Below are positions 56,261 through 59,288 of a stretch of 64,000 nt of DNA, piece after piece. Origin of the DNA: Escherichia coli (GTDB lineage Bacteria > Pseudomonadota > Gammaproteobacteria > Enterobacterales > Enterobacteriaceae); NCBI RefSeq assembly GCF_036507355.1, contig NZ_AP027877.1. One strand, written 5' to 3'. Every line of letters begins with the position of its first letter. Position 1 is the stretch's first letter. Both the position numbers and the translations under genes were made by a program. The notes under the pieces are model-generated. The model ran no database searches and was not told the DNA's origin. It worked only from the letters and a program-made list of their open reading frames with translations.

Positions 56261-56701
56261 ATGAACAAGCAACGCGGTTTTACACTTATCGAACTGATGG
56301 TGGTTATTGGCATCATTGCCATTTTAAGCGCCATTGGTATTCCCGCTTATCAAAACTACCTGCGCAAAGCCGCACTCACCGACATGCTACAAACCTTTGT
56401 GCCTTACCGTACCGCCGTAGAGTTGTGCGCGCTGGAACATGGTGGATTAGATACCTGCGACGGTGGCAGCAATGGCATTCCCTCGCCTACCACCACCCGC
56501 TATGTTTCAGCCATGAGTGTGGCAAAAGGCGTGGTGTCGCTGACCGGGCAAGAAAGTCTCAATGGGCTAAGCGTCGTCATGACGCCGGGTTGGGATAACG
56601 CAAACGGCGTCACCGGCTGGACGCGCAACTGCAATATTCAAAATGACAGCGCATTGCAGCAAGCCTGCGAAGATGTCTTCCGTTTTGATGACGCCAACTA
56701 A
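56261..56701 (+). CDS. ppdD: Type IV prepilin (major pilin)
   Basis: ORF track 146 aa; class III leader and N-terminal helix MNKQRGFTLIELMVVIGIIAILSAIGIPAYQNY. Confidence 0.92.
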   Translation: MNKQRGFTLIELMVVIGIIAILSAIGIPAYQNYLRKAALTDMLQTFVPYRTAVELCALEHGGLDTCDGGSNGIPSPTTTRYVSAMSVAKGVVSLTGQESLNGLSVVMTPGWDNANGVTGWTRNCNIQNDSALQQACEDVFRFDDAN

Positions 56702-56710
56702 GGAACGGCA

Positions 56711-58096
56711 ATGAATATTCCACAGCTCACCGCCCTGTGTTTGCGTTATCAGGGAGTCTTGCTGGATGCCAGCGAAGAAGTGGTTCATGTTGCGGTGGTC
56801 GATGCCCCCTCACATGAATTGCTGGACGCATTGCATTTCGCTACCACCAAACGTATTGAGATCACCTGCTGGACGCGCCAACAAATGGAAGGCCACGCCA
56901 GTCGCACACAACAGACATTGCCCGTAGCTGTTCAGGAGAAGCATCAGCCCAAAGCAGAGTTGCTGACTCGAACGTTACAATCTGCGCTGGAACAACGCGC
57001 GTCTGATATTCATATCGAACCAGCAGACAATGCCTACCGCATCCGCTTGCGTATCGACGGCGTATTGCATCCTTTACCGGATGTTTCACCGGATGCCGGA
57101 GTCGCATTAACAGCCAGATTAAAAGTGCTGGGAAACCTGGATATTGCGGAACATCGCCTGCCGCAGGACGGACAATTCACTGTCGAACTGGCAGGAAACG
57201 CCGTCTCATTTCGTATTGCGACCTTACCATGTCGGGGTGGTGAAAAGGTGGTATTAAGGTTGTTACAGCAGGTGAGCCAGGCACTGGATGTTAACACGCT
57301 GGGAATGCAGCCGTTACAACTGGCGGACTTTGCTCATGCCTTGCAACAACCACAGGGACTGGTGCTGGTAACTGGCCCTACCGGCAGCGGCAAAACGGTC
57401 ACGCTTTATAGTGCCCTGCAAACGCTGAATACCGCTGACATTAATATTTGTAGCGTCGAAGATCCGGTTGAGATCCCCATAGCCGGACTAAACCAGACGC
57501 AAATCCATCCGCGTGCCGGGCTCACCTTTCAGGGCGTTTTGCGTGCGTTATTGCGCCAGGATCCTGACGTCATCATGATCGGAGAGATCCGCGATGGCGA
57601 AACGGCAGAAATTGCCATTAAAGCCGCGCAAACCGGTCACCTGGTGTTGTCCACGCTACACACCAATTCCACCACTGAAACGCTGGTACGTTTACAGCAA
57701 ATGGGGGTCGCCCGCTGGATGCTATCATCGGCGCTTACGCTGGTAATAGCCCAGCGTCTGGTACGTAAACTTTGCCCACATTGTCGCCGACAGCAAGGGG
57801 AGCTCATCCATATTCCAGACAATGTATGGCCGTCGCCGCTGCCCCATTGGCAGGCACCCGGTTGTGTACATTGCTACCACGGTTTTTATGGTCGTACCGC
57901 CTTGTTTGAAGTCCTGCCCATTACACCAGCCATACGCCAGCTTATTTCCTCTAATACTGAAGTTGAATCGCTGGAAACGCACGCCCGACAGGCGGGTATG
58001 CGAACGCTTTTTGAAAACGGCTGCCTGGCCGTGGAGCAAGGCTTAACCACCTTTGAAGAGTTAATCCGCGTATTGGGGATGCCGCATGGCGAGTAA
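56711..58096 (+). CDS. hofB: Type IV pilus assembly ATPase (GspE/PilB family)
   Basis: ORF track 461 aa; Walker A GPTGSGKT; C-terminal CxxC...CxxC. Confidence 0.92.
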   Translation: MNIPQLTALCLRYQGVLLDASEEVVHVAVVDAPSHELLDALHFATTKRIEITCWTRQQMEGHASRTQQTLPVAVQEKHQPKAELLTRTLQSALEQRASDIHIEPADNAYRIRLRIDGVLHPLPDVSPDAGVALTARLKVLGNLDIAEHRLPQDGQFTVELAGNAVSFRIATLPCRGGEKVVLRLLQQVSQALDVNTLGMQPLQLADFAHALQQPQGLVLVTGPTGSGKTVTLYSALQTLNTADINICSVEDPVEIPIAGLNQTQIHPRAGLTFQGVLRALLRQDPDVIMIGEIRDGETAEIAIKAAQTGHLVLSTLHTNSTTETLVRLQQMGVARWMLSSALTLVIAQRLVRKLCPHCRRQQGELIHIPDNVWPSPLPHWQAPGCVHCYHGFYGRTALFEVLPITPAIRQLISSNTEVESLETHARQAGMRTLFENGCLAVEQGLTTFEELIRVLGMPHGE

Positions 58097-59288
58097 GCAA
58101 CTCTGGCGCTGGCATGGCATAACCGGCGACGGCAATGCGCAAGATGGGATGCTATGGGCAGAGAGCCGTGCTTTGCTGCTCATGGCACTACAGCAACAGA
58201 TGGTTACTCCACTAAGCCTGAAGCGAATTGCTATCAATTCTGCGCAGTGGCGAGGAGATAAAAGCGCGGAAGTCATTCATCAACTGGCGACGCTACTTAA
58301 AGCCGGGTTAACGCTTTCTGAAGGGCTGGCACTGCTGGCGGAACAGCATCCCAGTAAGCAATGGCAAGCGTTGCTGCAATCTCTGGCACACGATCTCGAA
58401 CAGGGCATTGCCTTTTCCAATGCCTTATTACCCTGGTCAGAGGTATTTCCGCCGCTCTATCAGGCGATGATCCGCACGGGTGAACTGACCGGTAAGCTGG
58501 ATGAATGCTGCTTTGAACTTGCGCGTCAGCAAAAAGCCCAGCGTCAGTTGACCGATAAAGTGAAATCAGCGTTGCGTTATCCCATCATCATTTTAGCGAT
58601 GGCAATCATGGTGGTTGTGGCAATGCTGCATTTTGTTCTGCCGGAGTTTGCCGCTATCTATAAGACCTTCAACACCCCCCTACCGGCACTAACGCAGGGG
58701 ATCATGACGCTGGCAGACTTTAGTGGCGAATGGGGCTGGCTGCTGGTGTTGTTCGGCTTTCTGCTGGCGATAGCCAATAAGTTGCTGATGCGCCGCCCGA
58801 CCTGGCTTATCGCGCGGCAGAAATTGCTGTTACGCATCCCGATTATGGGTTCACTGATGAGGGGACAAAAACTCACGCAGATCTTTACGATTCTGGCGCT
58901 GACACAAAGTGCAGGCATTACTTTTTTACAGGGCGTAGAGAGCGTCAGAGAAACAATGCGCTGCCCGTACTGGGTGCAACTTCTGACACAAATCCAGCAC
59001 GATATCAGTAACGGTCATCCCATCTGGCTGGCGCTAAAAAATGCCGGTGAGTTTAGCCCGCTCTGTTTGCAATTAGTGAGAACGGGAGAGGCCTCCGGCT
59101 CGCTGGATCTCATGTTAGACAACCTCGCCCATCATCATCGGGATAACACAATGGCGCTGGCGGATAACCTAGCAGCCTTACTGGAACCGGCGTTGCTGAT
59201 CATAACGGGAGGAATTATCGGTACGCTGGTGGTGGCGATGTATCTGCCAATTTTCCATTTAGGCGATGCGATGAGTGGGATGGGATAA
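58086..59288 (+). CDS. hofC: Type IV pilus inner-membrane platform protein (GspF/PilC family)
   Basis: ORF track 400 aa; start overlaps hofB end by 11 nt. Confidence 0.9.
   Translation: MASKQLWRWHGITGDGNAQDGMLWAESRALLLMALQQQMVTPLSLKRIAINSAQWRGDKSAEVIHQLATLLKAGLTLSEGLALLAEQHPSKQWQALLQSLAHDLEQGIAFSNALLPWSEVFPPLYQAMIRTGELTGKLDECCFELARQQKAQRQLTDKVKSALRYPIIILAMAIMVVVAMLHFVLPEFAAIYKTFNTPLPALTQGIMTLADFSGEWGWLLVLFGFLLAIANKLLMRRPTWLIARQKLLLRIPIMGSLMRGQKLTQIFTILALTQSAGITFLQGVESVRETMRCPYWVQLLTQIQHDISNGHPIWLALKNAGEFSPLCLQLVRTGEASGSLDLMLDNLAHHHRDNTMALADNLAALLEPALLIITGGIIGTLVVAMYLPIFHLGDAMSGMG

Follow-up and report, generated by a model that had tools for sequence, protein, structure and literature searches.

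The 64,000-nucleotide stretch of Escherichia coli DNA analysed here (the window) very probably carries a chromosomal type IVa pilus operon which is controlled through Sxy and a CRP-S site and has been kept by purifying selection. The locus is the well-known ppdD-hofB-hofC operon of the Escherichia and Enterobacteriaceae type IVa pilus, and is orthologous to the Haemophilus pilABC competence-pilus genes. Gene identity, intactness, motifs, synteny, dN/dS and the positional conservation of the CRP-S site were computed here. For the dependence on Sxy/CRP, the silence in culture, the assembly of pili and the low level of DNA uptake we rely on publications about K-12 and EHEC, and the window copy would be expected, by analogy, to behave like the operon in those strains.

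The three genes were defined from their open reading frames, alignment to K-12, Pfam and NCBIfam, and all lie on the + strand. ppdD (hcpA; 56261-56701) encodes a type IVa major prepilin of 146 aa, hofB (56711-58096) a hexameric assembly ATPase of the PilB/GspE class with 461 aa, and hofC (58086-59288) an inner-membrane platform protein of the PilC/GspF class with 400 aa. Each aligned over its full length and without gaps to its K-12 counterpart (b0108, b0107 and b0106, respectively) and has a single, terminal stop codon; the amino-acid identity of the products to K-12 was 98.3-98.6%. An earlier sequence-only reading had identified the three genes and called them intact. Its coordinates were exact, and the families were confirmed by Pfam and NCBIfam. 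It had also described coupled, overlapping reading frames, which holds for hofB and hofC, where the hofC ATG at 58086 lies within hofB (stop codon at 58094-58096) and the overlap is 11 nt, but not for ppdD and hofB, which are separated by 9 nt. Across 54 species the start of hofC overlaps the end of hofB by 11 nt in 42 and by 8 nt in 12, and ppdD and hofB are most often 9-12 nt apart. The Shine-Dalgarno sequence of ppdD, AAGGAG (56247..56252, + strand), was read directly 8 nt 5' of the ATG and forms a conserved block in the cross-species alignment. That of hofB, AAGGAA (56700..56705, + strand), was also read directly and overlaps the ppdD stop codon.

A hairpin flanks the operon on either side. 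The first (56068..56098, + strand; -15 kcal/mol, z = -3.66) lies directly 3' of the nadC stop codon, was matched in folding by none of 200 shuffles, and is the upstream limit of the ppdD regulatory region. The second (59288..59315, assigned to neither strand; -16 kcal/mol, z = -2.45) lies between the convergent hofC and guaC and is likely to be the end of both transcripts. Both fold well but have no U-tract, on either strand in the case of the second, and are therefore named hairpins only; neither was called in the terminator scan. An Rfam search gave no match within the operon.

All three products passed the NCBIfam equivalog cut-offs for PpdD, HofB and HofC. In Pfam, PpdD comprises N_methyl and Pilin. 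It scored 270 bits against NF007862 (cut-off 138), with residues 1-145 of 146 covered, and its class III signal peptide was recognised by N_methyl at 40.9 bits (cut-off 21.2). The N-terminus reads MNKQRG followed by FTLIELMVVIGIIAIL, so that Gly-1, Phe+1 and Glu+5 are all present. These three residues are invariant across 55 species, as are the four cysteines, Cys56, 66, 124 and 136 in precursor numbering, which presumably form the two disulfide pairs of the solved PpdD structure. PpdD aligned end to end with 6GV9 and 6GMS, and its mature part is two residues off the EHEC pilus 6GV9. Cleavage by prepilin peptidase and filament assembly have been demonstrated for the PpdD of K-12 and EHEC (PMC3330819, PMC2920817, PMC2649431), and we infer that the PpdD of the source strain would be processed and assembled in the same way.

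HofB (Pfam T2SSE) scored 822.9 bits against NF007755 (cut-off 617). Its Walker A motif, GPTGSGKT (222-229), Asp box, VEDPVE (249-254), Walker B motif, DPDVIMIGEIRD (284-295), and His box, TGHLVLSTLHT (308-318), are all present, the tetracysteine motif (2 x CxxC) is complete (CPHC at 355, CVHC at 385), and the window copy does not depart from the consensus at any residue that is at least 95% conserved. Against the canonical PilB profile, TIGR02538, it reached 489.8 bits, below the cut-off of 675.65 and over profile positions 165-561 only, and so we place it in a separate, N-terminally shorter family with a PilB-like action. It was likewise below the cut-off for GspE (TIGR02533, 459.1 against 630.25 bits). 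HofC matched Pfam T2SSF in two stretches (192 bits) and NF007861 at 663.1 bits (cut-off 401), and fell below the cut-off for GspF (TIGR02120, 267.4 against 424 bits). The best structural relatives were PilB and GspE for HofB, and PilC for HofC.

The protein classes and motifs of PpdD-HofB-HofC are those of the canonical PilA-PilB-PilC of Pseudomonas, Myxococcus and Geobacter. The alignment of HofB to PilB structures spans residues 75-455 (E = 1e-104), and HofC aligned to the PilC of M. xanthus, although the N-terminus of HofB is about 100-120 residues shorter than that of canonical PilB. Unlike the canonical type IVa systems, the window contains neither pilD nor the gene for the retraction ATPase, pilT. 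The Pseudomonas pilin regulators are PilS-PilR with sigma-54, whereas the ppdD operon is under CRP-S/Sxy control. The ATPase and platform families are also homologous to GspE and GspF of type II secretion (GspE-GspF-GspG). However, the product of the adjacent ppdD is a genuine pilin, not a pseudopilin, and its pilus structure has been solved; no gspC-O cluster lies nearby. The NCBI annotation pipeline labels HofB "GspE".

The earlier description of the module as complete was overstated. Reconstitution of the pilus took 13 genes, of which ppdD, hofB and hofC are three, with hofMNOPQ, ppdAB-ygdB-ppdC and gspO encoded elsewhere (bioRxiv 10.1101/856302). None of hofMNOPQ, ppdAB-ygdB-ppdC, gspO or pppA was found among the window genes, which were matched to K-12 from secA through fhuB, so that the prepilin peptidase, secretin, alignment proteins and minor pilins of a complete type IVa machine are absent from the window. 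In the working that we propose, PpdD would be the prepilin, and a prepilin peptidase encoded elsewhere would cut off its six-residue leader and methylate Phe+1. Hexameric HofB would act via the polytopic inner-membrane platform HofC, the two together lifting the mature pilin from the membrane and adding it to the filament base. The filament would also require HofMNOPQ and the minor pilins PpdA, PpdB, YgdB and PpdC from other loci. Translation of hofC is probably coupled to that of hofB via the 11-nt overlap.

Upstream of ppdD, a 22-bp site of the CRP-S type (Sxy-dependent CRP), TTCTTCGTAACGCCTCGCAAAT, was placed at 56114..56135 on the + strand, with C6 and G17. Its core begins 144 nt upstream of the ppdD ATG and matches 8 of the 10 consensus positions. 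The pattern TGCGA-N6-TCGCA is not enriched in the window, where 32 matches with up to two mismatches were found and 43 expected, and for that reason the candidate site rests on its positional conservation and on a published bandshift fragment. In 90 of 102 Enterobacteriaceae species the best match to the pattern lies between -150 and -136 (8% would be expected if matches were placed at random), with C6 in 97% and G17 in 82%. The site is identical in K-12, invariant in 8 E. coli strains, and lies within the fragment bound by CRP in PMC1635313, the primers for which map to about 56047-56178. No sigma-70 consensus was found in a promoter scan upstream of ppdD, and no convincing -10 element could be placed.

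In K-12, CRP bound the ppdD promoter fragment, and Sxy raised ppdD 90-fold; the effect was abolished in crp and cyaA mutants, ie it depends on both CRP and cAMP (PMC1635313). No PpdD was detected in 72 ECOR strains in culture, and induction of sxy in K-12 led to processed PpdD and DNA uptake (PMC3330819). The earlier statement that the module is normally silent agrees with the ECOR cultures and with the induction by Sxy. By analogy, the same dependence on Sxy, CRP and cAMP should hold for the copy in the window. Transcription would begin downstream of the weak, non-canonical CRP site, which would require cAMP-CRP together with the competence co-activator Sxy, and the operon would accordingly be off in ordinary culture and on only when Sxy rises.

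The pilABCD operon of Haemophilus influenzae resembles that of E. coli in its order of pilin, ATPase and platform genes, in its Sxy-requiring CRP-S site (PMC1635313) and in its link to DNA uptake. It differs in having a fourth gene, pilD, for the prepilin peptidase, which in E. coli is not part of the operon and is encoded elsewhere. Unlike H. influenzae, E. coli has no pilF2, and its natural transformation is barely detectable. It is possible, though we rather doubt it, that the genes are kept not for DNA uptake but for host adhesion and virulence, as the haemorrhagic coli pilus, the selective condition then being colonisation of host surfaces and not starvation or competence. EHEC makes HcpA/PpdD pili on Minca medium, through which the cells adhere, invade, form biofilms and twitch, and the pili also induce IL-8 and TNF-alpha (PMC2920817); UPEC hofQ mutants were poor at colonising the mouse kidney (PMC2649431). 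Against this, the competence-type CRP-S site is conserved not only in pathogens but also in commensal, environmental and plant-associated Enterobacteriaceae, and Sxy induces DNA uptake in K-12 (PMC3330819). The two roles are in any case compatible, and the window is unable to separate them.

Whichever role applies, the comparison between genomes gives a clear indication that the three genes are maintained by purifying selection, which is weaker than that on the flanking housekeeping genes. At least 80% of the length of the locus is carried by 5423 of 5426 complete E. coli genomes. The nadC-ppdD-hofB-hofC-guaC synteny is kept in about 115 species representatives of the Enterobacteriaceae, and ppdD, hofB and hofC are all intact in 54 of the 61 species that could be judged. 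In a set of 13, made up of 12 E. coli genomes and the window, piN/piS was 0.154 for ppdD, 0.076 for hofB and 0.122 for hofC, with a deficit of non-synonymous polymorphism in each (p = 1.7e-4, 1e-31 and 9e-20, respectively). Between genera, the median dN/dS was 0.12 for ppdD, 0.17 for hofB and 0.23 for hofC, compared to 0.07 for nadC and 0.05 for guaC. The range overall was 0.08-0.23, ie 0.08-0.15 within E. coli and 0.12-0.23 between genera, and the proposal that selection maintains all three genes is thus borne out by values far from 1. Frameshifts or stops in the three frames and a dN/dS near 1 had been named beforehand as the observations that would speak against it, and neither was seen.

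That the three genes are useless and intact only because no disabling mutation has yet occurred is, by comparison, hardly credible. They are silent in laboratory culture (PMC3330819), codon bias in hofB and hofC is weak (ENC 52-54), and sporadic natural knock-outs do occur, with hofB W380* in E. coli Ecol_AZ146, a ppdD nonsense mutation in C. braakii ATCC 51113 and a hofB nonsense mutation in Citrobacter sp. MGH106. The non-synonymous deficit within E. coli and between genera is, however, incompatible with long-term neutrality. All three genes have stayed intact in those 54 of 61 species although synonymous sites are saturated or nearly so between genera (dS from about 1.4 to above 3 for the window against the others), all the motifs are invariant, and the regulatory site has kept its position. 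At the level of the whole family, neutral persistence is largely refuted. Retention of the same clusters in the decaying genomes of Shigella has already been published (PMC3225857).

As a discovery the locus carries little weight, and the observation, although correct, is an ordinary one. The operon, the pilin structure, Sxy/CRP-S control, silence in culture and survival in gene-losing Shigella are all already published. What the analysis adds are figures for an operon that is near-universal in E. coli, syntenic and mostly intact in the Enterobacteriaceae, under purifying selection, and preceded by a positionally conserved CRP site of the competence type. In the gut, the pilus may serve DNA uptake, the use of DNA as food, or adhesion.

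The sequence-only reading had taken the intact frames, set beside decayed yadE and yacH, as an argument for selection. The decay is real. yadE is broken by Q52* (CAA>TAA, 27460-27462, - strand), and yacH by W156* (41900-41902) and by a 1227-bp IS3-family insertion at 42436-43662. The IS at the yacH site is absent from every RefSeq complete E. coli, the best identity being 98.8-98.9%, while an exact match to the yacH fragment occurs in the draft assembly GCA_905398585.1 and an identical HofB sequence on 10 contigs. With a single IS in 64 kb and an open yad fimbrial operon, the window does not resemble a classical Shigella. These were, however, the only broken genes among about 55 window genes compared with K-12, a comparison in which secA and fhuB are cut by the ends of the window and rpnC, yadC and htrE were not cleanly scored but have full-length open reading frames at their positions. 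The window is thus not heavily decayed, and with two of about 55 genes broken there is a chance of approximately 90% that all three would be intact anyway, as expected under neutrality too. An intact trio in one genome therefore says little, and the evidence for selection comes from the comparison across genomes.

The same losses bear on a further alternative, that of an operon which is sound but orphaned in this strain. One of the loci on which it relies elsewhere in the genome (sxy, hofMNOPQ, ppdAB-ygdB-ppdC or the prepilin peptidase) would then be broken, and the intact frames would reflect past selection. We consider this unlikely. Two nonsense mutations and one or more IS insertions within 64 kb imply ongoing gene loss, a working system depends on 10 more genes spread over no fewer than three other loci, and the window HofB has 4 private amino-acid changes. 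On the other hand, the private changes in the operon remain biased towards synonymous sites (14 synonymous and 5 non-synonymous), and the private substitutions sit at variable positions. The partner loci sxy, crp, cyaA, hofMNOPQ, ppdAB-ygdB-ppdC and gspO/pppA all lie beyond the window and could be defective in this genome.

The K-12 operon (b0108-b0106), equivalent to hcpABC of EHEC, is like that of the window in its position between nadC and guaC, gene order, gene lengths, 9-nt gap and 11-nt overlap, and the differences are allelic only, ie D2N in the PpdD leader, the four HofB substitutions and a short divergent tract at 57898-57961. Of the 13 E. coli genomes compared, only that of the window has D2N, although asparagine is the commonest residue at this position in other genera, and the alleles of the tract occur also in a cryptic-clade Escherichia. 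Synonymous diversity in hofB is unusually high, about twice that of the flanking genes. Together with the tract, this might mean that pilus-motor alleles have repeatedly been imported from one Escherichia lineage into another, with diversifying or frequency-dependent selection of some form (from pilus-dependent phages, for instance) behind it, but we regard that as very improbable. The alternative is simply that hofB, being weakly expressed and low in codon bias, changes faster at synonymous sites, as would be expected.

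Intact reading frames for ppdD (56261-56701, 146 aa), hofB (56711-58096, 461 aa) and hofC (58086-59288, 400 aa) were found on the plus strand, exactly where the sequence-only reading had placed them. By megablast the window matches K-12 at roughly 110-172 kb in reverse complement, with an identity of about 98.4%, and each gene aligns with its K-12 equivalent without gaps over the full length, with a single terminal stop and 98.3-98.6% amino-acid identity. The proteins carry the expected Pfam domains (N_methyl and Pilin in PpdD, T2SSE in HofB, T2SSF twice in HofC), and all exceed by wide margins the cut-offs of the enterobacterial PpdD, HofB and HofC equivalog models of NCBIfam. 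In the chromosomal type IVa pilus of enterobacteria these are the pilin, the extension ATPase and the platform. The feature is already known; the Haemophilus pilABC genes are orthologous (PMC1635313). The frames had been described as coupled and overlapping, which is true of hofB and hofC, where hofC starts 11 nt ahead of the hofB stop, but not of ppdD and hofB: a 9-nt gap separates the ppdD stop (56699-56701) from hofB, and the AAGGAA ribosome-binding site for hofB spans that stop. Similarly, the module is complete as a three-gene operon, but none of the partner genes (hofMNOPQ, ppdAB-ygdB-ppdC and gspO) lies within the 64-kb window. It is unlikely that damage elsewhere in the genome has orphaned this intact copy.

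The leader MNKQRG, Phe+1, Glu+5 and the four cysteines are all present in PpdD, and Gly-1 of the leader and the last three features did not vary in 55 species among the matches listed. Mature PpdD differs at 2 positions from the EHEC PpdD of the solved pilus structure 6GV9. HofB carries the Walker A, Asp, Walker B and His boxes and both CxxC pairs, and differs at none of the positions conserved to 95% or more. Private changes of the window copy number 14 synonymous and 5 non-synonymous across the three genes. None of the other sampled E. coli has the leader change D2N, but in other genera N is the residue most often found there. HofB and HofC exceed the cut-offs of their own equivalog models but not those for canonical PilB, GspE and GspF; the HofB match to the PilB profile begins only at profile position 165, and HofB aligns with PilB structures over residues 75-455. 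They are therefore PilB/PilC-like in working, but belong to enterobacterial families of their own with a shorter N-terminus. The RefSeq label "GspE" on HofB is a naming convenience and no evidence for a role in type II secretion.

The operon had been called normally silent. In ordinary culture PpdD is made by none of 72 ECOR strains (PMC3330819) and UPEC showed no pili (PMC2649431). Expression of sxy gives processed PpdD and low-level DNA uptake (PMC3330819), and EHEC grown on Minca medium assembles PpdD/HcpA pili that function in adherence and cytokine induction (PMC2920817). The point on retention is already in print: these gene clusters persist in decaying Shigella genomes (PMC3225857). Sxy induces ppdD 90-fold, an induction lost in crp and cyaA mutants, and CRP binding to the ppdD bandshift fragment is weak but specific (PMC1635313). 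The Cameron and Redfield primers for that fragment map to about 56047-56178. Neither a sigma-70 consensus promoter nor a convincing -10 element was found upstream of ppdD. The only CRP-S core match inside the bandshift interval is TTCGT-N6-TCGCA at 56117-56132, within a candidate 22-mer at 56114-56135 in which both diagnostic bases, C6 and G17, are present. By itself the pattern is not commoner in the window than in shuffled sequence, so the site was tested by conservation. It did not vary among eight E. coli strains. Among the matches listed, the 205 nt ahead of ppdD had their best CRP-S-like match at -150 to -136 in 90 of 102 species, compared with the 8% expected from random placement; C6 was present in 97% and G17 in 82% of those positioned sites, and several in Klebsiella and Pseudenterobacter match the consensus perfectly. 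Such positional conservation is evidence that competence-type control of the operon is conserved, and this would extend to the copy in the window.

Retention of the operon had been set against the decay of yadE and yacH. Both genes are indeed broken, by two independent nonsense mutations: Q52* (CAA>TAA, 27460-27462, minus strand) in yadE and W156* (TGG>TGA, 41900-41902) in yacH (41435-44520). The latter was hit twice, as it also contains a 1227-bp IS3-family element (42436-43662), which is flanked by a duplicated 3-bp target (CAA), has TGAATCGCCACGG/CCGTGGCGATTCA as terminal inverted repeats, and holds the frames orfA (42493-42777) and orfB (42834-43646, with rve domains). E. coli plasmids carry copies with 99.9% identity, and at this yacH site the element is absent from every complete RefSeq E. 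coli. The exact yacH fragment is also present in the draft assembly GCA_905398585.1; the highest identity among complete RefSeq E. coli was 98.8-98.9%. A classical Shigella is not what a single IS in 64 kb and an open, if strongly divergent, yad fimbrial operon would suggest. Among about 55 window genes compared with K-12, yadE and yacH were the only ones found broken. At that background rate one would expect all three named genes to be intact in about nine cases out of ten, with or without selection, and the argument from a single genome is therefore almost weightless; comparison must decide. The original observation stands with one correction, and its interpretation is correct in substance, with two details overstated and a weak argument.

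Searching one genome per species with a degenerate DNA pattern for the N-terminus of PpdD gave at least 120 loci. Those among the matches listed were nearly all from Enterobacteriaceae (Citrobacter, Salmonella, Klebsiella, Raoultella, Enterobacter, Kosakonia, Kluyvera, Lelliottia, Buttiauxella, Cedecea, Trabulsiella, Phytobacter and others), and in these the order nadC-ppdD-hofB-hofC-guaC was kept wherever the fetched DNA extends far enough. One locus, a 532-bp contig (coverage 0.78) of Arthrobacter sp. GMC3, encodes E. coli-type NadC and PpdD with 98-100% amino-acid identity to the window, and almost certainly reflects contamination of that assembly with E. coli DNA. All three genes were intact in 54 of the 61 judgeable species among the matches listed. 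Some exceptions come from poor assemblies, with nadC broken as well; real nonsense mutations occur in ppdD of C. braakii ATCC 51113 and in hofB of Citrobacter sp. MGH106. Median pairwise dN/dS for species among the matches listed was 0.12 for ppdD, 0.17 for hofB and 0.23 for hofC, compared to 0.07 for nadC and 0.05 for guaC.

Within E. coli, 5423 of 5426 complete genomes carry at least 80% of the 3.5-kb region, on the chromosome in all but three cases. Twelve genomes (ten from a 40-row sample spaced evenly along the ranking, plus the top match and K-12) were compared with the window. In these 13 sequences piN/piS was 0.154 for ppdD, 0.076 for hofB and 0.122 for hofC, with 0.016-0.021 for nadC and guaC and 0.131 for ampD. 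The deficit of non-synonymous polymorphism against neutral expectation was highly significant for ppdD (p=1.7e-4), hofB (p=1e-31) and hofC (p=9e-20). Judged from these ratios, ppdD, hofB and hofC are under purifying selection, looser than that on housekeeping genes. The benefit selected for may be DNA uptake, use of DNA as a nutrient, or adhesion. A neutral relic, with genes free of selection, is contradicted by these statistics and by intactness across genera whose mutual synonymous divergence is at or near saturation. Stops, frameshifts or a dN/dS near 1 had been named as grounds for abandoning the idea; the window copy has no such stop or frameshift, and dN/dS is well below 1. Loss does happen, since one of the 12 fetched genomes, Ecol_AZ146, has hofB W380* (annotated as a pseudogene), and with the two Citrobacter knock-outs this indicates that the operon can be lost in some lineages. 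The weak codon bias of hofB and hofC (ENC 52-54) and their synonymous diversity, about twice that of the neighbours, are as expected for rarely expressed genes.

Nine substitutions absent from the 12 sampled genomes fall within 64 nt in the 3' part of hofB (57898-57961). The 150-nt stretch holding them is 92.7% identical, against at least 98.7% over the first 900 nt of the gene, and 11 of the 15 window-private changes in hofB are common to Escherichia sp. E1V33. Either the import of a short tract or an old polymorphism may explain the cluster. The longest nadC frame (55123-56058, 311 aa) starts ahead of the K-12 start at 55165 (297 aa), so the mechanical ORF is 14 codons too long. Three Rfam matches above gathering score, none inside the ppdD-hofC operon, were tp2 (50796-50909, plus strand, between pdhR and aceE), naRNA4 (62184-62260, minus strand, between yacG and mutT) and STnc40 (62664-62733, minus strand, between mutT and secA). 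Relative to K-12, the aceF-lpd spacer (46016-46222) is short by about 117 bp (megablast gap), and may lack a repeat element present there. The yad fimbrial operon (yadN-yadV-htrE-yadMLK-yadC, 15255-22488) is only 69-85% identical to K-12 DNA with all reading frames open, and its flanks at 14451-14930 and 22601-24258 (folK, panB, panC) are at 94.6-94.8%, compared to about 98-99% elsewhere; from these identities it looks like an allelic replacement of the entire cluster.
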